Assembly: GCA_009602725.1 (NCBI GenBank)
Contig: WELB01000003.1
Span: 1,277,500 to 1,325,303 of the forward strand
Direction of reading: 5' to 3'
DNA length: 47,804 nt
DNA from: Spirogloea muscicola
Lineage: Eukaryota
The translations under genes and the position numbers were made by a program. The notes under the pieces are model-generated. The model saw only the letters and a program-made list of their open reading frames with translations, had not been told where the DNA came from and made no database searches. Positions 1-47,611 of the stretch are shown here, piece after piece (within the stretch, counting starts at the first letter, position 1; each line of letters opens with the position of its first letter).

Positions 1-3000
1 GGTGGCCGCCGGGGCCGGCCAGGCCGGCCAGTCCCACCCGCGCCGTCCCCACCCACGCCTCAGCACTGGCAGTGGCTGGCCGGCCTCGACCTGGCAGCCG
101 TCCACCGCCAGGCGGCCCTCCCGCTCGTCCGCCACGTTCCCCGCTGGGTGCGTCCACACATTCGCCGCGCGCTTCGCCCGGCGATGCAGCGGATTGTCCG
201 AGACCATCGGGACGAGGCGGCCTGGAAGCAGTTCCTCCTCTTCCCCCGGCTACTGCTCGGGCGCGTCCCCAACGACGGCCGCCGGCAGGGCCAGCAGCCC
301 CTCCTGGAGCGCGTCCAGATGTTCGAGGGCGGCCAGTGGGAGGAGCTTCTGGTGCGCCACGATGCAGCGGTGGCCGCCTCGGCGGCAGACCATGGGGCCA
401 CGCGGGCCGCGCCAGCCGGGGCCGCCATTGTCCGCTGGGCGCTACGCTTCGACCATGCGGGCGAGTTGTCCAGGGCGGTCCAGGCCCTGGACGACTCGGT
501 GCTGGCGCCCACCAACGCCGCCACGCGGGCGGCCCTGGACTCCCTGCACCCTCCGGCGCGCAACCCCCTGCCCCCTGGGCTGGACACCTTCACCCCGCTG
601 GAGGAGGTGGTCCTCGACGCCGACGCCCTGCGGCAGGCCCTGCAGAGCAGCCGCCACGCAGCCGCTGGAGGTCCTTCCCACATGCTCACCGAGCACCACC
701 GGGAAAGCTTCTTGGAGGGGGACGCTGCCGACTTCGCGGCGCTCCACCAGGTGTGCCAGCTCCTAGCTCGCGACCAGGTCCCAGCCAGCGTTCGGGACGT
801 CCTGTGCGCCAGTACACTGCTGGCGCTCAGCAAGGCCGGCGGAGGGGTCCGGCCCATCGCCATCGGGGAGGTACTCTACCGTCTGGTGGGGCGCGCACTC
901 TGGCAACAGCACGCGGGGCAGGCCCAAGCACACCTGGCGCCCCAGCAGTTCGGCGCGGGGCTGCGGAGCGGCGGCGAGACGGTCGTGCACGGCGTACGGG
1001 CCACCCTGGACCTGCACCCCGAGTGGGTGGCTATGGCAGTCGATGTCCGCAATGCTTTCAATAGCGTTGATCGGGACTCATTGCGGAGGAGCTGAGAAAG
1101 ACCTTCCCCAGCCTTCTTCCCTTCTTCAGGCTGGGGTACGGTCGGCCAAGTGACCTGCTGTGGCGGACGGAGGGGGGAGCGGTGGAGACCCTCCACTCCA
1201 CCAGGGGTGCACGTCAAGGGGATCCACTCGCTGGATTCTACTACGCGCTGGCACACCATCGCGCGCTCCAGGCAACGGTCGCGGCTCACCCTGGCGTGCT
1301 GGTGCCGACTTACGCAGATGATACCACTCTGGTGGGACCGCCTGCAGACGTCGTGGCAGCCTTTGCTACCCTCCAGGTGCAGCTGGGCGCGATCGGCCTG
1401 GACATCAGGGCGGACAAGTGCTGTGCCTGGTCCCCGGCAGGTCCCCTGCCAGCCCACCTGGGCCTGCCCGTGGGCTGCCAGACACCGGCCGAGGGTCTCA
1501 CTCTCCTCTACGTCCCCCTGGGCGCACCTGCCTTCGTGGCGGAGCAGCTGCAGGGGCGGCTGCAGGACCACCTCCGGCCGGCGGCCCGCCTGCACACGCT
1601 GAACGACATGCAGCTGGCAACCGCCATGCTGACCCGGTGCATCACGCAGCGGCCCCACTACCTGGCCCGCACCGTCCTTCCCTCACCGGCGGTGACGGCA
1701 GCGTATGAGGCCTTCGACACTGGCATTATGGCGGCCGCAGCCTCCCTCGTGCAGCACCCGGCGTTCCTCACCACCCAAGCTGCGCAGCTGCAGGCCAGCC
1801 TGCCGATCAGTCGTGGCGGCTTGGGATGCCGCTCAGTTGCCCGCGTCTGTGAGGCGGCCTTCCTGGGAAGCTGGGCGCAGGTGGCCGCCCCCATGTGTCA
1901 GCGGTTCCTCGTGCACGGACAACGCGCCCTGGAGCGGGCGGCAGCCGATGTGGAGACAGGCCACCTCCCCTTCCAAGTCGCCCTCCGCACTGCCCGCGAC
2001 AGGCTCCTGCAGGTCCACCCCAACATGTCCGAGCAGACTGTTCCTTTCCGGCACCTCGCCCACACTCCAGACCTGCGGGCTCAGGCACGCTTCACGGCAT
2101 TGGTCGAGAAGGCGGCCTCCGACCAGGCGGTGGAGCTTCTCCCTCCGTCTGACGTTCGCGGGCGTGCTCGGCTTCTCTCCGCCTCTTCCCCTGGGGCGGC
2201 GGCGTGGCTCCAAGCGCTCCCACTCTATGCCGCACTTACCATGCCCGACGAGGTCTACCGGACGGCGGTGCATCGGCTCTTGGGGCTCCTCCCTCCCTGC
2301 CTTACAGGTGTCACACAGTGCGAGTGCGGCGCCCGGCACGCCGACCCTGCGGAGCTGGCCGCGCACATGCTCCGTTGCGCCCACGGAGGCGAGCGGACCG
2401 CTTCCCATGATCTTTCGCGCGATGGTATGCAGGGGGTGTTCATAGAGGCGGGCTTCAAGGTGGCGGTGGAGTGCTCCTCAGTCATGCCCATCCTGCCGGG
2501 CGAGGACGGCCGGTCGCACACCCGACGCGTCGACCTGGTCGCTATCCCGCCCGGCGGCGGTCCCCGCATCATCGCTGATGTGGTGACAACGGACAGCTAC
2601 GACTCCGGCAACCCCACCAGGTCGGCGTCGTTTGCAGGGCATGCAGTAGGCCTGGCAGCCCGGGCAAAAGAGAGAAAATATGCCGATCACCCGGTCGGTG
2701 ATGAGTTCGCGGCCCTGGCGATAGATGTTCACGGGGCCTTCGGCAGCCGCTGGCTGGATCTCCTCCAGCGGCTTGCTCGTCACGCTATTGATCGGCGGTC
2801 GGGTCCGCCCGGGGCGCTGCCCGGCTTCAACGCCGCCGGGTCGCTCGCCCAGGTCTTTCGCATGCGCTTGGCGGTATCGTTCCAGCGATCCCTTGCCCAC
2901 GCTGTCCACACGCGCGCAGGACGCGCTCTGGCCGCGGCCTCCGGGTCTCGGCGGAGTGCCTCCTTCCCTGCCTCGAGCTACTCGGACCTGATGTTGCTCA

Positions 3001-3014
3001 CTCGCGGGTACTGA
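1..3014 (+). pseudogene. RT-RLE polyprotein ORF of about 1000 aa within the window, broken by one 1-nt frameshift near 1073-1077
   Basis: The frame of ORF 148..1095 is open from position 1. After NAFNSVDR the homologous text continues in the other frame (LIAEELRKTFPSLLPFFRLGYG...GARQGDPL), joining ORF 1182..3014. One extra base in GATCGGGACTC restores a single frame. Confidence 0.88.
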
Positions 3015-3150
3015 GCTTCCCTAGTATGTTGTCGTGATTGGTAGAGTAGAGGAGTCCTTCCTCGGCATCTCATTCTTCGGCTTTGGACATTGTCCATTCT
3101 TTTTGGGCTGGCTTTGCCAGCCCCTCTTTCTCTATGGGCGAGCCTTCTTC
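1..3150 (+). mobile_element. Near-intact non-LTR retrotransposon of the RLE (R2-superfamily) type, CRE-clade-like; 5' end lies outside the window
   Basis: RT motifs GVRPIAIGEVLYRL, QFGAG..GGETVVH, VDVRNAFNSVDR, GARQGDPL, YADD and GGLG are followed by a CECG..H..C zinc knuckle, GGERTASHD, RRVDL, ADV, KERKY and LAIDVHGAFG (PD-(D/E)xK restriction-like endonuclease). The 3' UTR carries a hairpin module and a CTTCTTCTT tail at ~3143-3152. Confidence 0.93.
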
Positions 3151-3167
3151 TTAGAGAAAGAGGCGTC

Positions 3168-3316
3168 GGCAAAGCCAGCCCAAAAAGAATGGACAATGTC
3201 CAAAGCCAAAGAAAGAGAAGCCAGAGAAGGACTAGATGCAGAACACAAGACGATGCAGAGGGAAGCTCAGTACCCGCGAGTTAGTCAGAGTAGCTCGCTG
3301 CAGGGAAAGAGGCACT
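3168..3316 (-). mobile_element. Inverted 3'-terminal fragment of the same CRE subfamily, tail-to-tail with the long copy
   Basis: Reverse complement matches 2955-3118: the ORF end (TRGY-stop, gagcttccct) and ggctttggacattgtccattctttttgggctggctttgcc. Confidence 0.85.
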
Positions 3317-3394
3317 GAAAGGTTGTGAAAGGCCAGCCCTTGTCCATTCCTTTTGGGCTGGCTTCTCCCAGCCACCAGTCAATCTGCGCGCTTG

Positions 3395-3582
3395 CTGCTG
3401 TGAAAGGCCAGCCCAAGAAGAGTTGACAAGGTCCAAAGAGCCGAAAGGCGCCTAAACCACACAGCTATGCACGAGACTACCGCGGATGAGAGCTTAAGAA
3501 CCACGAGGTAGCGGCAGCAAGTCGGAGTAACTCGCGGCTGGGAAAGAAGCACCTCGCCGAGACCCAGAAGCAGCAGCACCGG
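3395..3582 (-). mobile_element. Degenerate CRE 3' fragment
   Basis: Minus strand reads GAAASGSRRGASFPAASYSDLLPLPRGS*, then a 3' UTR with a gggctggcctttcacagc module. The UTR resembles 30810-30897. Confidence 0.8.
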
Positions 3583-3844
3583 ACCTTGTCAGCGCTTTTC
3601 GGGCTGGCTTCTCACTCCTGGCTGATGAGTCAGATGACTACCTGGTTCACCATAATAACGAGTTTAACAGCACGACTCCCCAGCCCAAAGTCTTCACCAA
3701 ATATATCTACTGAAAGAAAAGAAGGCGTAGCATTTCGCAAGAATTGGGAGAAGCCAAGCCGAGCCAGTAAGCTGTTTAGGCGGCTTGTTTGCCCAAAGAA
3801 GGGGTGTCCTAGCAAGATGGACTTATTTCATTCTGATGTTATCT

Positions 3845-3970
3845 TAGGTACCTTAGATTAGGTCTCCGTATTATGTAGCATTGTTTAGTCTGCACTCGAC
3901 TCTGCCTGAACAATGTATTGGCTTGAATTGGCCTCCCTTTCAATTCATGCGCCCCGCGCGCCTTCTCTCT
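3845..3970 (+). repeat. Dispersed ~125-bp repeat ('type E' terminus, ends gcgccccgcgcgccttctctc); probable retroelement 3' UTR
   Basis: Near-identical copy at 26298-26421, diverged copy at 11812-11940 and partial inverted copy at 8800-8868. Confidence 0.8.
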
Positions 3971-5002
3971 GAGATGAGACCGCTGTGCTCCTTTGGTGAC
4001 TCTACCTACGATTGCCACCTACCCTGGATGTGGGCGGAGCCTGTGCTAGTCTGATCTGTGTCTGCCATTATGAGCGGATCTGCGTCTGCACCTCCGCTCC
4101 GAGGCGGGTCTAGTGAGTCTGTAAAGATGGGCAAACGCCCCAGCTGAGAATCTTCAGAAGATTGGGAAGAGGAGGCCGTCAACAACCAGTTAACCACCAT
4201 CAAGAGGTGCGACATTAGGAGTCGCCAGATCGCCAGATCTGAATCTCCAACACCTTGAAGGTGCACCATATTTCTCACACAATCACTTCCATTACATCAG
4301 GTGAAGGCCATCATTAATTAGACATGCGGCCCTCCAAGTGTCATGAATCCATAGTCATGGGCAAGGCCCTGCACTGTCTTTGGCAGATCGTCTATGGCAG
4401 CTTGCATACTGCTAATTCTAAGGATATTGTTGGCAGTGAGGCTACACCAGATCGCAGCCTCACTGTATCAGCACGCAAAGTCACTTGATCAGGCCAGATT
4501 GTTTTGCGAGGAGTCTTGCAGTCTTCTTGTGATATTTTGTCAAGACAGCCACCTCGCTGCAATTCACATCTGCAAGACCTACTCTGACATGTTTGTACTG
4601 GTCAGGGGAGCATAGGCGTAGGAACCAGTTTTGTATAAACAAAAGAGGACCAAGTCTAGGTCCAAAGTAAGAGATGGCTTCTGCAGGATGCCAATAAGAC
4701 AAGCCACTCATTTGCTTCTGAATAAGTGAGCTGTGCCTTCGGCCAGCCCAACGAAGTGCTACTTCTAAGGCGACTGCTAACCTTTGCCAAAAACTGTTTG
4801 CTAGAATTTGAGGAGTATATGCCCTGCCAAGAAAGAATGAATTAATGTTGATGCTATGGGGAGTAAGGGTGAAGCCTGAATCCTCTTGAGCACTATCAAA
4901 ATTGACTGATGTCTAGGCGAGCAGGTTGACCAAGAACATTGGGTTCCTGCCGCTCTGGTGTGCCGTGATATCCTGGTGCTGCGGCCAGCCTCCATTCCGT
5001 GG

Positions 5003-7560
5003 CTACAAAACGTCTGCCAGCTGCCTATTTACACTGTCCCGTTCCACCTTTGTCTTTATAGGCTTCAACTTGACACCCATGCCCTGGGGTGAGAGTGCCT
5101 CTGAGGAGCACAAAGGAGAGGTTGGTGATCTTGGAGCCCTCCTTAGCTCAAAGAACAAAGCCCGCTGAAAGCCAAGTCGACTCAAAAACCGCTCCATGGC
5201 TCTTTGCATCATATTTGGCCGCTCCTCGGTGACCAATGCACCGCATGTTGGAACCTGGAAGTTAACGAGTCAACATTTCCATGACACTTTAGCGGCATCA
5301 TAATTACTATAACCAACTTTAGCGGCGTCAGTGCAGTGGCAACTTACTACGCAGAAGCAATGACATTCCATACCTGCACAATAGCTACTACATACACACT
5401 GCACACACTGAAAACGGACACAATGAATACAATGAGTCCGATGGAACAATGTAGGTGGCTTGACATTTGCAAGTTAGGTACCTCAATGTATGTCACAGAG
5501 TCCTTGCTCAATTGGGTGATCATGTGCAAGCTTTCTCCAAGAAAGCTGGAATTTTGGCCACTTATGACAAGGGATGGACATTGCAATGTACGCAGATTCT
5601 CTGATATATCTCGTCGCCTGCACATTATGTAGCAATGTCCTGGTCAGCTGCTTCTCAATGAGCAGCAGGAGCAAGGAGGAGAACAAAGAAGCAGCAAATT
5701 GTTGCAATACTTACTGGGCCAAGGCTCGGACGTAGCGTGCGACGTTGTGTGGGTTTCGTCGCTCCAGATCCTGCAAGCAAACAGGTGACTATCAGAGACA
5801 AGCCATGAGATGATTCATTCATATGCATTTGCTGACATGCGTAAAATGCAGTCGCAAGGTGCACAGCGTTGTAGGTGCATACTCACCCTTCTGAATGTGC
5901 GCACTGCTTCAGGAGTGGGACCAGAATTACCATTTTCCTGTATGCAGTGAGTGAGGTCAAAAGTGAGTTTCACCATCGTGAAAGAGTTCTGCCCTTGGAT
6001 GATGTACTTGTCCAGCTTGCAGTTGTAGACTGCTTAAACTGAGGGCAGACAGCAGAGACTCATACGATCAGCACATGACGTATACCTGGCAGAAATAACG
6101 CTGCAGGAGTGTGTCTTTTGCAAATGTTGTCCATCCATAGTAATGAAGAACACTTGCAAGCGCCTGCATGGTGCAAAATTGACAAAGTCAAACACGTGTA
6201 TACTTCAAAAGCAAAGCTACCTCTAGCGAAATGTAAGAACAGTATAATAGGACAGTGAAAAGCAAGGGTAGACTGACAGGCTTCCACTGAAGGCGACATG
6301 CTGATTTGGATTCTATGAGTACCTTTGAGTAGGCCCACTCAGTCCACGTAGGTGCTTGACAGATTGGTGATACAAGAATGAGGCCCAGCACTTTCTCTGG
6401 ATATTGAATCTGTTACCACCAATACCATTTGAACGTTGCATTAGTCTCACAACTTTGGTAATGTCATCCTGTATGCTATCTGCGACTTTCCACGATAATC
6501 TGTAGTGCTCTGAGCTATATGTATTTTTGCAAATGTCCTCCCTGGACATGATAAGTATGACCTGAATTGCTTCAGGAGTGTGAAGCAAAGCACAGCAGTA
6601 AAAGCAAATGGACAGCTTCATCCATAGAAGAGTCAATAAACTCGCATCTTATAGCAATAGGGTCAGCTGCGATTCCATTACCGCATATTGAGTCAGGATG
6701 TAAGCTCCACCAGTCACGCCGAGGCTGACCATTACTTGAATCCTGTTTTAGGCAACATAGACTCAGCATCCAAGAACAAACTAGCTGCCAAGCAGCAGTT
6801 GACTGGCATTCTTCAACTCGATCTCATGGTAATTCTCAGCATCGTACCTGAAGAAGCCGACAATGTCCTTCACTTGACTTACAAGATCGTCCACACTCCA
6901 ATCTGGCCCAGACATGTCTGCAGCATTCGTCTGCAAGGTGCACAAGATCAAGTGTCCTTCAGATGGAGAGCCAAGCATAGCAAGGATAGCACTAGCCTTG
7001 TGACTTTGAGTCAGCCTGCTTGGCAAGATACTGCTGAATCATCCAGAATAAAGCTCTCCATCTGATGTACCTCATGGCCAGGCGAGTCGATATGATAGAT
7101 GCAGAAGTTGTGAAGGAGTAAAGTGGCAATATCAGCACAAAGGAATAGCCCTTGGAAACAGTTCGTATCTGCAGACAGAGTTTCAACAGGTGATCAACAC
7201 TTGATACTGGCAAAGCATGATGATATTAGTCATCGTCATCTGGGAAGGCAATGGAGGGTTTGAAAGCTTACGGTCGAGCCCTATGTCATGGTAAGTGACG
7301 AGTCCTGGCTTCCTGCGATTCCCAACAACCGTCACATTCACGTTTCCAAGCCTGGTCGGTACTACCTCAACTTGAGGCTCCTCCTCTCCACTGCTAGTGT
7401 CATCATAGGAGGAAGCTGAGCTCCAGCTTTCGCTTCGTCCAGAGAGCATGGACAACGGGTACGCCGTGGACGTTGTGATGAGGCCCGGAGGCACAGGGAG
7501 TCGCCTGAGGTCTGGAGGTGACTCCCAAGGGGGCAAGGCCTCGTCTGGACCATCTTCCAT
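5003..7560 (-). CDS. NDL: NDL / N-MYC downregulated-like (NDRG/SF21 family, alpha/beta-hydrolase fold) protein, multi-exon
   Basis: Spliced exons give [96 protein letters not shown] and the C-terminus [32 protein letters not shown], typical of plant NDL proteins. The junctions checked are GT-AG. Confidence 0.92.
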
Positions 7561-8587: not shown

Positions 8588-8795
8588 GAAGAAGAAGTGG
8601 CATTCCCAATGGGGGCAAGGGCTGCGAAAAGCCAGCCCAAAAAGAATTGACAAGGGTTTTGGAGGGGCCTACAAGCGATTAGCAGCTACAAAGGGGCCGG
8701 AAGATGCTATGTCAGAACAGGGGGAAGGATGGTTCACTCAGTAGGTACGAGTGAGTAGCCTCAGATCCGACAGACTAGTTGCCGGGAAACTATCG
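8588..8795 (-). mobile_element. CRE 3' fragment (subfamily ending LLTRTY)
   Basis: Minus strand reads DSFPATSLSDLRLLTRTY*, then a UTR and hairpin module. It parallels 39105-39310. Confidence 0.85.
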
Positions 8796-8991
8796 GGAAG
8801 AAGAGAGAAGGCGCGCGGGGCGCATGAATTGAAAGGGAGGCCAATTCAAGCCAATACATTGTTCAGGGGAAGAAGAGAAGAAGAGAAGGGGCTCGACCAT
8901 TGAGGATAGGGGCTGGACAAGCCAGCCCAAAAAAAATTTAACAAAGAGCCGCGGATCTCGTCCTCGCTGCCGGTCGCCCGACCTCCACGGC

Positions 8992-11609: not shown

Positions 11610-12165
11610 CACTCTATTTTTGGGCTGGCCACTCACAGCCATCGCCCACAACTGGAAGCGTCTCTCTCTTCAGCGTTTGTTCGGGCTGGCTTATCACAGC
11701 CCTTGCCCCCAATGGGAGAGCCACTTCTATCTCTGGTCTCTTCTTTTCCTGGTCCCTTTGCCAGCCCCTCTTCTCTCTTCTCTATGGGCGAGCCCTTTCT
11801 TTTTGTCACCTTAGGCACCTTAGTTTTGGTCTCCGTATCATGTAGCCTTGTTTAGTTTGCACTCGACTCTGCCTGTACAAAGTATTGGCTTAAATTGGCC
11901 TCCCTTTCATTCCTTGCGCCCCGCGCGCCTTCTCTCTTTTCCTGATCCCTTCGGACTTTGTCAATTCTTCTTGCTGGGCTGGCCACTCACAGCCATCGCC
12001 CACTACTGGAAGCGACTTCTCTTACATCTTTGGCAGAGAGAAGGCGCGCGGTGCGCATGAAATTGAAAGGGAGGCCAATTCTAGCCTTAACAAATGTCCT
12101 GTAAACTGGGTAATGAGCTGGCTAAGGGGGACTAGAGGCAATGACTATGAGAGGCCAGCCCAATG
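11610..12165. repeat. Stack of retroelement 3'-end modules in both orientations
   Basis: GGGCTGGC..CAGCC modules at ~11622, 11683, 11750 and 11976 (+) and ~12150 (-); type E terminus 11812-11940 (+); type F terminus 12036-12135 (-). Confidence 0.8.
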
Positions 12166-21838: not shown

Positions 21839-22369
21839 CGCGACGCTCGTCGGGCACGCGGTCGCTCTGGCGGCTCGGAGTAAGGAGCGCAAGTACTCTG
21901 ACCACCCTCCAGGCGATGCCTTCGCGGCACTGGCCATTGACGTACACGGGGCATTTGGCAGTGGCTGGTTGAATCTCCTCCAGCGGCTTGCCCGGGAGGC
22001 CATCGAGCGGCGGCAGGGTTCGCCAGGCTTCAATGCTGCCGGCTCCCTCTCGCAGGTCTTTCGGATGTGGCTGGCGGTCTCGCTGCAGCGCTCTTTGGCT
22101 CATGCGGTCCACGCGCGGGCTGGCCGTGCTATGGCTGCTGCTTCCGGGTCTCGGCAAAGTGCCGCTTCTCCTGCTCCGAGTTACTCTGATCTGCTGTTGC
22201 TCACACGTGGATACTGAGCAGCCATCTGCATCTCCCTCTGCACCATCTTGCACTTTGTAGTGTAGTCCTTTTTCAGCACCTCTTTCTTTGGCTTTGAACA
22301 TTGTCCATTCTTTTTGGGTTGGCTTTGCCAGCCCCTCTTCTCAATGGGCGAGCACCTTCTTCTTTCTTC
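21839..22369 (+). mobile_element. CRE 3' portion of the same subfamily as 1-3150; may extend into the gap
   Basis: GHAVALAARSKERKYSDHPPGDAFAALAIDVHGAFGSGW...SYSDLLLLTRGY* (stop at 22217), then UTR, hairpin module and CTTCTTCTTTCTTC tail. Confidence 0.92.
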
Positions 22370-22785
22370 GCCCGTCGCTTCCATGGTGAACCGGTAGACT
22401 TTCCTGCAGCCGGGTCGCTGGCGCAAGTGTATCGCATGCGCTTGGCCGTCTCGCTGCAGAGGTCCATGGCCCGTGCGCTGCACCTTCGTGCTGGACGAGC
22501 CCTTGCTGCTGCCTCTGGCTCTATCCAGGGGACCCACTTCCAGGACCCTAGCCTCTCTGATTTGCGGCTGCTTAGCAGGGGTTACTGAGTGATCTGTAGC
22601 TGCTTTCTTTCTTTGTGTGCTTTGGTTTCTTAGCGCTTCCTCTGGCTTCCTCTGGCCCCCTTCTGGCTGGCTTTGCCAGCCCCTCTTTCTCTATGGGCGA
22701 GCCTTCTATCTTCTCGTTCTTTGTACATTCTTTTTTGGGCTGGCTTGTCCAGCCCCTATCCTCAATGGGCGAGCCCTTTCTTTTC
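22370..22785 (+). mobile_element. 5'-truncated CRE copy (subfamily ending LLSRGY) directly abutting the previous tail
   Basis: ARRFHGEPVDFPAAGSLAQVYRMRLAVSLQRSMARALHLRAGRALAAASG..LSDLRLLSRGY* (stop at 22588); close relative of 26636-27109. Confidence 0.9.
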
Positions 22786-23230
22786 TTAGTGCTTCGCCTT
22801 AGTGCTTCGCCTGGCCCTTCTTCTTGGGCTTCTTGTACTCTGCTCATTCTTTTTTGGGCTGGCTGTTCCAGCCCCTATCCTCAATGGGCGAGCTCTTTCT
22901 TAAAAAGCGCACCCAGTGGCCGCTTGAGTCCCTGTGTGCTTAAGCGCTTTTTCTGGCTCCTTACCTCTGTTGATCACCTGTTTCTGGGCTGGCCAATCAC
23001 AGCCATCGCCCTCTACTGAGGCTTTCAACCGGCCCTTTCAGACCTTGTACAGTCCTTTGGGCTGGCCTTCCACAGCCACTGCCTTATGTTGGAAGAGCTG
23101 TCTCTTTTCCATAGTAAGAAATAGCTCTGTCAAGGTAAGGCAAAGGCTGTGAGAAGATGAAAATGTAAGCTCATTCAAAGGTGGCGAGGGCTGTGAGAGG
23201 CCAGCCCAAAGTACTGAACAAGGCCCAGAA
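22786..23230. repeat. Continuation of the head-to-tail array of 3'-end modules
   Basis: Modules at ~22856, 22986 and 23059 (+) and ~23190 (-), each preceded by a short subfamily-specific UTR piece. Confidence 0.8.
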
Positions 23231-25819: not shown

Positions 25820-26297
25820 CTCTTGAGAATCTGTCGCGGATGCGTTGTTGGCGGCTACTCCTTGCTACAGACCGGAAGGCAAAGCCAGAACAGAAAATTG
25901 GATTGAGCCTCCAAAGCAGAGGCTCCATCCAACTTGCTTGCATAACGAGAGATAAGCCAAAGTCACCTCATCATCGGCCTTCTTCGTGTACCTAGAGGCG
26001 TAGGCCCCACAGCCAAGCACGCCCTCGACAGGACGGCACTCCTCCCCACTGCCGCCGCAGCGGGCGTCGCAAGCACGCGGATGGTCTGCTGGGGGCAGCG
26101 CTGCAGACCGCCAGTGCAAGGGCAAGTGCGGGCGAGAGTGCGCCCGCTCATATCTCCTCAAAGAGCCAGTAGTATCCTCTCAACGGCAGCTTCGACGCCC
26201 CTGAGCCACGGCAAAGGGCGCGCCGCGCGCCTGCCGGCACAGGGCGCGCGCGGCAGCCGCGGCGGAGGCGGCGTCGGGCGCCCGCTCCCCTTCTTCA

Positions 26298-26421
26298 GAT
26301 ACCTTAGATTAGGTCTCCGTATTATGTAGCATTGTTTAGTCTGCACTCGACTCTGCCTGAACAATGTATTGGCTTGAATTGGCCTCCCTTTCAATTCATG
26401 CGCCCCGCGCGCCTTCTCTCT
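26298..26421 (+). repeat. Type E 3'-terminal repeat, flanked by CTTCTTCA direct repeats
   Basis: Near-identical to 3845-3970. CTTCTTCA occurs at 26290-26297 and 26420-26427. Confidence 0.8.
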
Positions 26422-26477
26422 TCTTCAATGACTCGCAGATGTGCTTTCCGGCTGAGATGCGCTTGCCAGCTGCACAT

Positions 26478-27370
26478 GAGAGAGAAGGCGCGCGGTGCGC
26501 ATGAAATTGAAAGGGAGGCCAATACTAGCCTTCCAAATGTCCTGTTAACTTGGTAATGAGCTGGCCAGGGGGGACACTAGTATCCCCGGGTGAGCACATG
26601 CATATCTGACAAGCTATACTGAGGAGCCCAAAACCTGCTCGGGCCAAAGAGCTGAAGTACGCGGATCATCCGCGGGAAGACGAGTTCTTCCCGTTGGCCA
26701 TCGACACACATGGGGCGCTGGGAGCTCGGTGGCTCGAGCTGCTCACCCAGCTCGCCCGCCACACCATCGCCCGGCGCTTCCATGGGGAGCCGGTTGACTT
26801 CCCTGCAGCCGGGTCGCTGGCGCAAGTGTATCGAATGCGCCTGGCCGTCTCGCTGCAGAGGTCCATGGCCCGGGCGCTGCACCTTCGTGCCGGCAGAGCC
26901 CTCGCTGCTGCCTCTGGCTCTGGCCAGGGGACCCACTTCCAGGAGCCCAGCATCTCTGATCTGCGGCTGCTTAGCAGGGGTTACTGAGTGTCTCGTAGCA
27001 GCTTTGTTTCTGTTACTTAGCGCTTCCCCTGGCCCCCTTCTCGTACTCTGTTCATTCTTTTTCGGGCTGGTTGTTCCAGCCCCTATTCTCAATGGGCGAG
27101 CACTTTCTTCAAAACCACCACCACGGAAGCCACTAGCCTGGGCTAAAGCACGACCAGCACGCTCGGGAATAGCGAGTGCTTGGGAGCGCTGCAGACTCAA
27201 TGATAGCCGCATTCTATAGCATGCCACGATGGCTTGCGGGACGCTAGAATGGCCTAAGCTACCGGCCCGAGTACGTCGGCGGGCATCAACATGCAGTGCC
27301 AGGCGATGGAGGAGGGAAGACCACTTCGTTCTGTAGCCGCCGTACATGTCCATGGCGCATATCAGTCGTT
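26478..27370 (-). mobile_element. CRE copy (subfamily ending VLTRGY with type F 3' UTR), split by a nested insertion
   Basis: MDMYGGYRTKWSSLLHRLA..YRMRLSLSLQRSQALAIPERAGRALAQASGFRGGG (27370-27117) resumes as ..PQYSLSDMHVLTRGY* plus UTR ending gcgcaccgcgcgccttctctc (26635-26478). An uninterrupted relative lies at 37745-37972. Confidence 0.88.
26636..27109 (+). mobile_element. 5'-truncated CRE copy (LLSRGY subfamily) nested in the opposite-strand copy, with a 6-7 bp TSD
   Basis: KELKYADHPREDEFFPLAIDTHGALGARW...ISDLRLLSRGY* (stop at 26987), then the hairpin module. CAAAACC occurs at 26629-26635 and 27110-27116. Confidence 0.92.
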
Positions 27371-30347: not shown

Positions 30348-30394
30348 CTAAACCCTAAACCCTAAACTCCTAAACTCAAAACCCGAAACCCTAA
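30348..30394. repeat. Degenerate interstitial telomere-like repeat (CCCTAAA)n
   Basis: taaaccctaaaccctaaactcctaaactcaaaacccgaaaccctaa. Confidence 0.8.
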
Positions 30395-31330: not shown

Positions 31331-31935
31331 TTGTTAGCATCCATTGGTCCAGCATCGACGCACATCGCTGGCCACGCAGTGGGCAGTGCAGAACAAAGAA
31401 AGCTGCAGCACTATTCCGATTACCCCCAATGCGATCAGCCAGCGGCAGTCGACATCTTTGGCTGTTTAGGTCATCGTCTCCACCCTCTCCTTCAGAATAT
31501 TGCATATCTAGGCTACACACGACATGCAGATGTGTTCCCGGCTGAGATGGGCTTGCCAGCTGCATATCTGTCGTTCTTGCGACGGCGAATTTCGGCCTGT
31601 TTGCAGCGTGCTCAGGCTAATGCTTTGCACAAGAAAGCTGGGCAAGCTCTAGTTGGTGGCAGAAGGGCCTCATATCTGCCATCTAGTATTCAGGCATCAA
31701 TTAGCAACCTTTATGTTTTTGACCCGTGGTTTCTGAGCTGGTCAATCTGCTGTAATTTATGTAGGTCTTCAGATGTGCTTGCCTTTTGGCCTTGTGGTAC
31801 TTGGCCATTTGGCCTTCGTTTGTTTCAAATACACGAAACATTTTCATTGGCCACTTGAGTCGCTGTGTGCTTGGGCGCGTTTTCTGGCCCCTTCCAACTA
31901 TATTCATTCTTTTTCCAGGGCGGCCAATCACAGCT
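31331..31935 (+). mobile_element. 5'-truncated CRE copy of a divergent subfamily (RLE C-terminus plus UTR)
   Basis: IAGHAVGSAEQRKLQHYSDYP..PAAVDIFGCLG..FLRRRISACLQRAQANALHKKAGQAL is homologous to FAGHAVGLAARAKERKYADHP..ALAIDVHGAFG..FRMRLAVSFQRSLAHAVHTRAGRAL. Confidence 0.85.
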
Positions 31936-38829: not shown

Positions 38830-39720
38830 AAGAAAAGACTTTCGTGTATTTGAAACAAACGAAGCCAAGTGGCCAAGTACAAAGGCAAGCACATCTAGAG
38901 ACGCACATCACCTACAGCAGATTGACCCGCTCAGTAACCACGCGTCAAACCATAAAGGTCGCTAATCGATGCCTGAACACTAGATGGCAGATACGAAGCC
39001 CTTCTACCATCAACCATTCTTTTTGGGCTGGCTTTTCGCAGCCCTTGCCCCCATTGGGAGTGCCCCTTCTTCTCTTAACTAGAGCTTGCCCAGCTTTCTG
39101 GTGCAAAGAAGAAGTGGCACTCCCAATGGGGGCAAGGGCTGCGAAAAGCCAGGCCAAAAAGACTTCACAAAGGTTCAAAGGGGCCTAAGAGCGGTGAGCA
39201 GCTACAAAGGGGCCTGAGGATGCAATGGTAAAACAGGGGGAGGATGGATCACTCAATAAGTACGAGTGAGGAGCCTCAGATCCGACAGACTAGCTGCCGG
39301 GAAGCTATCACCCTGACGAAAGCCAGAGCCCGCAGCGAGAGCACGGCCAGCTCGCAGATGCAGAGCGTGGGCCATGGACCGCTGCAGGGATACAGAGAGG
39401 CGCATCCGATATACCTGAGCCCACGAGCCCGCGGCGTTGAAGTCGGCTGGCTCGCCGCGTCTGCGGGACACAGCCCGCCGCGCAAGCCTAGCCNCTGCTA
39501 AGCAGCCGCATAAGCTGTGTGGTTCGGGCCCTTCACTCTTCCAATGTAAGAAAGAAAGAGAAGTGGCTCTTCCCTCTCTGGCCGCGCTTCTCTTCACTAT
39601 GGGCGAGCACTTGCTCTCTGCCAAGAAGAAGGGCTCGCCCATTGAGAATATGGGCTGGAACAGCCAGCCCAAAAAAGAATGAACACAGTACAAGAAGAGG
39701 GGGGGGGAAGGGCTGCCTCT
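38830..39720 (-). mobile_element. Nest of CRE 3' fragments from several subfamilies, containing a 62-bp plus-strand module insertion
   Basis: 38840-39105 is the inverse of the 31625-31840 type. 39105-39492 reads ARRAVSRRRGEPADFNAAGSWAQVYRMRL..LSDLRLLTRTY* plus UTR. A further minus-strand module lies at ~39620-39680. Confidence 0.85.
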
Positions 39721-45021: not shown

Positions 45022-47611
45022 TCATGGCGTGGGGTTGGGGAAGCGAGCATGCACAGCATCAATCTCAGCGAGCGCGGCGGTTGGCACCGCAGTGCTGGCT
45101 GCTGATAGGGCCTCGGCGAGCTGCGTGGAGTTGGAGGCTCCAACGATGGCGCTGCCGACCAGCGGGTTTGCCAGCACGAAAGCGAGCGCCAGCTGCGCGG
45201 GCGTCAGGCCGTGGCGCTCCGCAATGCTGGCATAAGCCTGCACCATCAGCCGCCACACTTTCGGCAATGTCACATCTCGCCATGGCGGTTTAGGACTTGG
45301 GTTTAAGGTCTGGGATCAAGGGCCCAAGCAGGCCAAGCGGACGAGGCAGCCCTGAGGGCAGCCATGAGGGCGGCCCCGCATGCGGCTCACCAGCACAGCC
45401 TCGCGGACGTTGGGCTTGGCGAGGCCGTAGCGGCACTCCGCCTCGGCATACCGCCCGCGGTACTTGATCAGACGCGCCTCTGGCGGCGCAGCACCGCCAC
45501 GGAAGTACTTGCCGGTCAGCAGGCCCATTGCTAGCGGGCTGCACCAAGGGTCAGGAAGGAGGTGAGGAGAGGAGTGAGGAGGGCAGTACGAGCAGGGCAA
45601 TATGGGAGGGTCCAAATAAGGAGGGAGGGTGGGAGGGAGGGACGCCGCCGAGGGAGAGAGGGGGAGTTGGGAGGAGGGGGGTGAGAGGCCAGATTATGAG
45701 CAGCTAAGCTTTCAAGGTCTGGTGGTCTAGGATAATAATTTGTTCCTTTGTTGTTAAATGTCAAGCATCAGAGCAGTGCCCATGCGAAGTGCACCTGTAG
45801 GCGAGGAGGGAGACGCATTCGAGGTGGCAGACCTCCGCGAGGCCAGCGTCGAACGTGCGGCAGAGAAGGCTGTAGGCGTTCTGCACGGTCACGACGCGCG
45901 GGAAGCTGTGCGGTTGCGCCTGCGCGAGGTGCAGGCAGCTGAGCAGCCCGTATGGGGTCTCATTGCTGACGCCCACGTGCCGCACCTGCAGAGGAGGCCC
46001 GCCCGCACTAATCAGCCGGTATTGGAAGCAAATCAATATCTTTCTGTGAAAATCAACCAATAACTTGTCTTGAAGAATAAGCAAAGCCTGAAGCTTTTGT
46101 TCTACTTGTTGAGAGGGGCAGGGTCGGCGGTGCCGACTCTGGCAGCAGCCGCTCAACCAAGGGCGTGTAGCAGAGAGAAGGAGGATTCAAGACTCAGCAT
46201 CATTAGCTTCAGAAGTAACTTGATGTGGGTTGTGAGCTGATTGATATTTCATATGTCAGATTAAGTTGACTCCATGTCCTGCTTCGATCCAGGGCAAGAA
46301 GAGGGAGGGGGGGACCTTGCCTGCGGCAACGGCCTCCCCGAGCGCGCCGAGCTGCTCCTCAAGGCCAGCGGCCGCGGCGTAGCTCTGCTCTGGCCGGTAG
46401 TCGACCTCCCCAAACATGGGCACGTACCTGCAGCCCCACCTCGGCAGCTCTTGAGCCGCAGCAAGACAGTGCAGCGGCGGAAGCTACTGCAGCTTGCGAG
46501 ATGGCGAGCTTATGCTGCTGTGGCTTGCGCTAAGATTAGGCTGCGGCTGAGGCGGCGATTCAGAAGGGGCCGGAGAAAGGTGGGAGGGAGGTTGAGTTGG
46601 TTGATAAAGGATGGAGAAGCTGGAGGGAGGTAGAAGGCAGGACGAGGAGGTGGATGCGGAGGTAATGGGGATCTGAGGAGGGAGGTTGGGGTGAGACAGT
46701 GGGTTTAGCGTCACCTGTCAGGCCAATGCGTCTGATAGAGGTCGACGTAGTCGGTGCGCAGGCGCGCGAGGCTGCCGTCGAGCGCCGCCCGGATGCCGGC
46801 GCCGCTCAGCGCCGGCGGCCCGCCGCGGATCCAAGGCATCTGGCCCGATGGGCCCGTCACCTGGGCACAGCGCCAGTCCGCAAGCTTGAGATCAGAGCCA
46901 CTGCACTCATAAGAGAAAGACTTAATTAGTGGATCTTTCTTCATCTATACTAAATCCTTAAAAGTGTTCCAGTAGGCAAAGCTGACCCTCTTCCATTAGA
47001 GGGCGATGGCTGTGATTGGCCAGCCATAAAGCACCAATTGTAATGGGAGCTGCAGTTGTGGTCGCCCCAACGGCCATTTTACTGTAGAATGTGAGTAGCT
47101 CCCTCAGATTTCGAACCAGGTGTGCATTTCTCGTATCATTTTATTCATGTACCTGTGGCTCAGATGAGCTTACTCATTTCAATAATTTCTATAATAAGCA
47201 AGTGCTCCACTATCTTGCTAATTGAACACCCTAAATTCTTCTGGCGGCACCTTGGTAGCAATTATGATGCGGTCACGGCTGACACCGGCGGCGCGCATCC
47301 AGCGGCCGACGTACTCCTCGGAGCGGCCCTGCCAATGGCGCTCACACTCTCTGTCAGCAAATCCGGCAGAAAACACATTCAGGGCTTAGGGGTATGGTTT
47401 CAGGGTTTAGGGTTTCGGGTATAGGGTTGCAGAAAATTGTGAGATGCGTGGAAAGAAGACAGGTGCCTTCATGGGCGCACCTGAGTGCTGGCCCGCTGCG
47501 GCACGGGGTACATCTCGGCGGTGTCCACGAAGTTGACGCCGGCGTCGTGCGCGAGCGAGAGCTGCGCGGCTGCATCGGCGTAGCTGATGCCCTCCCCGAA
47601 CAGCATGGTGC
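45022..47611 (-). CDS. Aldo/keto reductase, Tas-like; 5' exon(s) lie beyond the visible part or window edge
   Basis: GTMLFGE..GVNFVDTAEMYPVP|GRSEEYVGRW..IIIATK|VTGPSGQMPWIRGG..DGSLARLRTDYVDLYQTHWPDR|..VRHVGVSNETPYG..VQNAYSLLCR..|SPLAMGLLTGKY..|AQLALAFV..SAIVGAS..FPNPTP*. Confidence 0.95.
47385..47428. repeat. Degenerate telomere-like (TTTAGGG)n tract in an AKR intron
   Basis: cttaggggtatggtttcagggtttagggtttcgggtatagggtt. Confidence 0.65.

Follow-up and report, generated by a model that had tools for sequence, protein, structure and literature searches.

A frameshifted copy of a single-ORF RT-RLE non-LTR retrotransposon, with near-identical frame-open sisters, in Spirogloea muscicola

The window, i.e., the whole stretch of DNA analyzed here, comprises 47,804 nucleotides of the Spirogloea muscicola contig WELB01000003.1. 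It opens with a non-LTR retrotransposon on the forward strand (Table 1), followed by relics of related elements and by genes of the host. A gene on the minus strand (5252-7071), interrupted by seven GT-AG introns of 105 to 272 nt, was confirmed by spliced joints in two public sequencing runs (X1 and X2). Intron-rich genes identified by eye between 12600 and 47700 were syntaxin-like, alpha-mannosidase-like, phospholipid methyltransferase-like, and PMP3-like genes, a quinone oxidoreductase, the plastid ribosomal protein L11, and an aldo-keto reductase, and many genes in this part begin with GCC runs. Short plant-type telomere-like repeats appeared at 30348-30394 and 47396-47432, internal and away from the element junctions.

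The element is read in two frames. Frame +1 is open from 1 to 1095 (364 codons), without a stop back to base 1, as the original prediction had it, and frame +3 is open from 1071 to 3014 (647 codons). Together they encode one protein with reverse transcriptase (RT) and restriction-like endonuclease (RLE) in which all catalytic residues are kept, and restoring a single base gives 1,004 codons within the window (359 + 1 + 644, calculated from the coordinates), in line with the predicted ORF of ca. 1,000 amino acids or longer one base away. The Pfam RVT_1 profile was divided over both frames (profile positions 3 to 88 and 108 to 192 of 205, each under the curated cutoff), and intact relatives of 1,017 to 1,096 amino acids matched both halves collinearly from end to end, with 37 to 42% identity. 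The QGD and YADD motifs, the CCHC knuckle (C414, C416, H429, and C433 of the C-terminal half), and the RLE residues (H443, E464, D485, D500, and K530, same numbering) had all been predicted, and in an alignment of 88 sequences they were confirmed as conserved columns, RT, knuckle, and RLE residues being kept in 77 to 87 of 84 to 87 relatives. As window residue 16 pairs with residue 74 of the relative P0003, ca. 58 N-terminal residues would precede base 1, a part that would include the zinc finger found in relatives.

Table 1. Positions of the element, its parts, and selected relics within the window
Feature	Position	Strand	Basis
N-terminal ORF half: helical region ahead of the RT, then RT motifs as far as the first catalytic Asp (1042-1044)	1..1077	+	Frames, Pfam, relatives
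One-base deletion (frameshift), private to the window copy; one more base in sister contigs	1077..1078	+	Contig comparison
C-terminal ORF half: remaining RT, thumb, linker, zinc knuckle, RLE; stop at 3012-3014	1080..3014	+	Frames, relatives, model
RT motifs QGD (1215-1223) and YADD (1311-1322)	1215..1322	+	Alignment
Tyr instead of the Gly of sister contigs and 84/85 relatives	1509..1511	+	Alignment, contigs
CCHC zinc knuckle, C-x1-C-x12-H-x3-C	2319..2378	+	Alignment
RLE core: HD (2406-2411), E (2469), D (2532), D (2577), K (2667), KY	2406..2681	+	Alignment, published motif
3' UTR, with (CTT)3 tail at its end (3144-3152)	3015..3152	+	Sequence
5-bp stem GGCTG/CAGCC	3106..3122	+	Nearly invariant across 21 related 3' ends of the window
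3' flank: older relic of a related subfamily, antisense, cut in its own 3' UTR, 75.7% identical to the element 3' end	3153..3316	-	Sequence comparison
Longest related relic: RLE end and 3' UTR, 73% DNA identity; adjoins scaffold gap	21840..22362	+	Sequence comparison
Relic of another subfamily, 65% DNA identity across the RLE end	26637..27110	+	Sequence comparison
Relic of another subfamily, 71% DNA identity	39104..39471	-	Sequence comparison

The AlphaFold model of the C-terminal half reached a mean pLDDT of 93 and a pTM of 0.90. All seven Foldseek matches of this model at E ≤ 0.001 were R2 proteins, with LINE-1 appearing from E 0.04, and R2 was also the best match of the family profile in the PDB (197 bits across RT and RLE); the C-terminal half as a single sequence had no match among PDB sequences. 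A profile of six sequences retrieved 5,418 representative proteins at E < 1e-30. The nearest named relatives were gene models of Klebsormidium nitens, Closterium spp., and S. muscicola itself, RT proteins that have in common with the element 29 to 60% identity, YADD, and a similar C terminus; they are annotated only as hypothetical, unnamed, or RT-like, and several are intact single ORFs of ca. 1,020 to 1,100 amino acids. This set of relatives indicates a streptophyte algal host. In a midpoint-rooted FastTree phylogeny of 128 C-half regions and 571 columns, with no named reference or outgroup and a sampling biased toward matches of our own profile, the window copy clustered with Klebsormidium-type proteins (0.959) inside a clade of 18 that includes Closterium proteins (0.985). 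The full-length relatives P0002 and P0003 carry RVT_1 only, with ca. 60 to 75 residues ahead of the aligned part and no N-terminal APE domain. A metagenome scan found no near copy, its best locus (L001) being 42% identical; this locus, like six of the nine relatives tested, has an N-terminal zinc finger. In the 546 nt before the start codon of the relative at L001, neither Rfam nor a simple descriptor, both insensitive, detected a ribozyme, and Rfam on 13 loci gave one chance-level hit in 10 of them. No named CRE, SLACS, Cnl1, MoTeR, NeSL, R4, or HERO protein was found among the homologs, representatives, cluster members (24 proteins), or atlas matches.

Passages of PMC3636483 define the R2 group by one ORF in which the RT precedes a PD-(D/E)xK-type endonuclease. 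In sisters and relatives the element is read in a single frame, which is interrupted once in the window copy; it has an R2-like predicted fold, together with the RT motifs, the C-terminal CCHC knuckle, and the acidic and lysine residues of the RLE, and it lacks an N-terminal APE domain, as judged on P0002 and P0003. R2 proteins (R2Bm, 8gh6/8ibw; R2Tg, 9dou/9nl3; Platysternon R2, 9nl2) ranked first in the PDB by structure and by profile, with a TM-score of ca. 0.5 and E values of 3e-11 to 2e-8 against the C-terminal half, yet at 14 to 17% identity. The R2 clade targets 28S rDNA; the window element sits in a cluster of relics, and the window contains no rDNA (Rfam, 0 hits of any kind). A 5' HDV-like ribozyme is a further feature of the R2 clade, and the RLE motif is common to CRE and R2 and diagnostic of neither clade.

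The CRE clade (CRE1/CRE2, SLACS, and CZAR, with the related MoTeR, FoTeR, and Cnl1) is described in passages of PMC12278014 as having a single ORF with RT followed by RLE and one or two N-terminal zinc fingers. Our element has this single-ORF order, and six of the nine relatives tested have an N-terminal finger. According to passages of PMC12857005, the CRE RLE motif is C-x1-3-C-x7-8-H-x3-4-C-x9-10-RHD/N-x19-33-E-x9-21-R/KPD-x12-14-D/E. The core HD-x19-E-x18-RxD-x14-D of the element fits the SLACS/CRE spacing, and the sister contigs have a MoTeR-like RAD; in contrast, the knuckle spacing is C-x12-H and C-x8 (x7-8 and x9-10 in CRE), and the Arg of RHD is Ser in the element and Thr in five of its nine closest relatives. 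As far as passages of the same two sources describe them (PMC12278014, PMC12857005), CRE members have a 3' poly(A) in general (trypanosomatid) and a fixed spliced-leader or telomere target. The element ends in (CTT)n where the trypanosomatid members have poly(A), and neither spliced-leader genes nor telomere repeats were seen as its target (3' flank, 23 related ends, and Rfam with 0 hits). Compared with CRE members by their published descriptions, the element works like a CRE-type element and is a candidate member of that clade. By description too, it resembles the HERO clade, characterized in passages of PMC4640811 as RLE elements that are mostly non-specific, in being an RLE element without a strict target. 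The telomeric Zepp1 was the only green-algal element named in passages of PMC10088271, and the titles and abstracts searched gave no description of RLE or CRE elements in streptophyte algae, which by itself does not establish absence from print; the lineage of the element may be undescribed.

The 3' end lies at ca. 3152 (CTTCTTCTT, with a (CTT)3 tail and no poly(A)), and most related 3' ends carry pyrimidine tails. In the stem GGCTG/CAGCC, none of the five pairs showed a compensatory change, so that conservation of sequence and of structure are indistinguishable. Folding of the whole 3' UTR gave a z of -1.8. A second 3' hairpin was rejected, being no better than shuffles (combined z of -1.6 over 20 ends, three of them with p < 0.05).

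A model built from 21 related 3' ends matched 33 places at E < 0.01 in the 48 kb, the training 21 included. Related 3' ends occur about once every 1.5 kb (3153-47030), almost all of them intergenic and often nested. Relic DNA beyond the element amounts to ca. 7.4 kb, of which 47 bp fall inside rough gene spans, and makes up 37% of the rough intergenic DNA. Most relics are 65 to 78% identical to the element and each ends in its own copy of the ORF C terminus, which identifies them as 5'-truncated copies of other subfamilies and indicates that several subfamilies exist. On these grounds, it is doubtful that the family of the element supplied the enzyme for the surrounding relics, as had been suggested. 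Site specificity, which the original prediction cited as frequent among CRE-type elements, is unsupported in its classic form, since the 3' flank is an antisense relic and the 23 complete related 3' ends have differing flanks. Another relic follows 16 of these 23 ends (binomial p of 0.002, with non-independent clusters), which selection could explain.

Relic ends often abut head-to-tail or tail-to-tail, for instance at 8590-8947, 11617-12132, 21840-23210, and 38840-39674; this arrangement may result from self-targeting, from template jumping of the RT, or from selection. A clear nested insertion is seen at 39014-39108, where a short 3' end lies antisense within an older relic, both parts of which match 31623-31838. 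Copies of a second 3'-end family (3842-3970, 8797-8867, and 26292-26426) are 98 to 100% identical over 66 to 130 nt, so that this family is young as well.

We then compared the element with contigs from four public runs (X1, X2, X5, and X6) of four studies. Assembled contigs are majority paths that drop rare variants, so that they show the family majority and not the window locus, and the window copy's own alleles are absent from them for this reason; nor do they prove that a single intact full-length locus exists. Within the four runs, no single contig spanned the whole element. One base is indeed missing near the G-run where the original prediction had placed the loss, but not from the run itself: sister contigs keep the three G's at 1073-1075, without the fourth that had been suggested as a check at 1070-1080, and carry a lone extra G after 1077. 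Contig depth at 1077 was all frame-open in 4/4 runs, namely, 10.8 of 10.8 in X5, 17.1 of 17.1 in X6, 63.8 plus 23.9 of 87.6 in X2 (the second value from a divergent contig with a base added at 1073), and 167.4 of 439.6 spanning in X1, where the remainder belongs to two contigs whose ends fall at this point, on the additional G. The G-less junction of the window was not found in any contig of the four runs. Because the lost base is a lone G and the contigs are frame-open in four runs, we rejected a homopolymer sequencing slip.

The longest X6 contig (1,881 nt) differed from the window element by 22 substitutions and one gap (ca. 1.2%), and this frame-open sister sequence, ca. 98.8% identical, bears out the prediction that this plant-lineage genome contains a young non-LTR retrotransposon of the RT-RLE type. 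Among the 40 of 147 recorded differences that were used, one in the UTR was dropped and five polymorphic ones were set aside, leaving 34 near-fixed changes. Of these, 15 were synonymous, and the other 19 altered the amino acid, in 17 codons; 20 were transitions, and seven corresponded to CpG-type decay on the window side. Their synonymous share (15/34, 44%, among the differences used) compares with 27 to 31% expected (p of 0.02 to 0.07). A share somewhat above the neutral one implies that part of the divergence came from a working sub-lineage and, with divergence partly inherited, the window copy may be younger than 1.2% suggests.

Five of the 17 changed codons give, at a conserved site, a residue never seen in the family alignment. 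These are Tyr for Gly, in what is presumably the RT primer-grip region (Tyr in 0/85 and Gly in 84/85 relatives); Ser for Leu (Ser in 0/87; V, L, or I in 84/87); Trp for Arg (Trp in 0/76, Arg in 47/76); Gly for Trp (Gly in 0/82, with Trp in 8/8 of the closest relatives); and His for Leu (His in 0/84). The missing base was therefore not the only lesion, contrary to what had been proposed. Nor does a master-like role fit a copy with a deletion and conserved-site missense changes absent from its sisters, at ca. 1.2% divergence; judged by its sequence, it is best read as recently dead.

No run is recorded as RNA; what makes X1 and X2 look like RNA are spliced joints of the flanking gene: seven of the 10 joints listed in these two runs skip CT..AC segments of the neighboring minus-strand gene, at a depth of 26 to 115, next to two unspliced X1 contigs listed with depths of 7.5 and 11. 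Three bins of unique sequence were without cover in X1/X2, and X5 and X6 covered repeats only. Both X1 and X2 covered 30/30 bins of the element, in the frame-open form only, which makes it likely that the family is transcribed, from sister copies and not from the window copy. Contig depth gives neither strand nor expression level, and the element signal in these RNA-like runs could also be DNA carry-over multiplied by copy number, antisense transcription, or read-through.

Altogether, we consider the window element a decaying copy, disrupted by a frameshift, of an R2-group non-LTR retrotransposon with a single RT-RLE ORF. Its near-identical frame-open sisters are probably transcribed and probably still mobile; to this reading as a whole we give a probability of about 0.8. 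An intact copy elsewhere would produce one protein of ca. 1,060 amino acids that, by analogy with R2 biochemistry, would bind its own RNA near the 3' end, the candidate signal being the GGCTG/CAGCC stem before the CUU tail. The RLE would nick DNA, reverse transcription would be primed at the nick, and its early stop would leave 5'-truncated copies, the proposed reason for the many short 3' ends. The window copy would have inserted into the relic cluster and decayed afterwards, through the loss of one base and of several conserved residues. With these lesions it is unable to produce the complete protein and could act at most as a passenger RNA. The choice of target appears relaxed, with copies either surviving in or preferring the intergenic clusters of relics.

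Among other explanations, the least improbable, although still unlikely, is that the family died recently, the frame-open contigs being a majority path through many broken copies and the RNA signal passive. This would agree with the lack of a contig spanning the element, with depth that carries neither level nor strand, and with the high X1/X2 depth of other relic families too. It sits poorly with long contigs of low difference (728, 1,411, and 1,881 nt) that have the same letters across four studies, with an RT core that is absent from the short relics of the window and deep in both RNA-like runs, and with several unique stretches without cover in those runs.

Slightly less probable still is an intact, master-like locus whose frameshift and substitutions are assembly errors. 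The G-less junction seen in no contig would be expected then, and the region is repetitive, rich in GC, and located at the end of a sequence, in an assembly with gaps and single Ns. Nevertheless, the lost base lies outside a homopolymer, and the 34 further near-fixed changes among the differences used, with their 20 transitions and seven CpG-type changes, have to be explained as well. As a control, two intron-containing X1 flank contigs had 0 differences in 283 and 331 nt (614 nt in all); one exon contig had four differences in 264 nt, which shows that alleles or paralogs exist. The share of 31-mers (0.69) equals 0.988^31, as expected if contigs drop single-copy alleles. Programmed -1 frameshifting, known from some retroelements with two ORFs, would suit the 25-nt overlap of the frames in a -1 relation, but the break falls inside the RT, there is no slippery heptamer in 1001-1110, and sisters and relatives have one continuous frame; we rejected it as scarcely credible.

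The LINEs described from the plant lineage are usually of the APE-type L1 and RTE. As a tentative idea that is rather doubtful in its full extent, streptophyte algae, from Klebsormidium to the Zygnematophyceae, might carry their own old and still active CRE-like RLE lineage. This lineage would have given up gene and telomere targets and would insert preferentially into its own relics, and the RT of its divergent subfamilies would load on one 3' stem that has stayed invariant among them; the lineage would fill more than one-third of the intergenic DNA here and spare genes. A plentiful and probably transcribed RLE family in algae close to land plants would mean a wider distribution of the R2 group, and one may then ask at what point it was lost in land plants. 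Compact single-ORF RLE enzymes are potential tools for gene insertion; an enzyme that recognized a short, defined 3' signal and spared genes when inserting would merit an assay. The window copy by itself is an ordinary broken element.

Traces of related elements were also seen in public data. Three gene models (P0001, P0005, and P0006) join relic ORF ends to host exons, with Pfam accessions that we take to be aquaporin and armadillo-repeat domains; these fusions are likely annotation artifacts due to the element family. In another locus (L011), a single contig carries two tandem RT-like ORFs of a distant relative (1-6030), possibly as an array.
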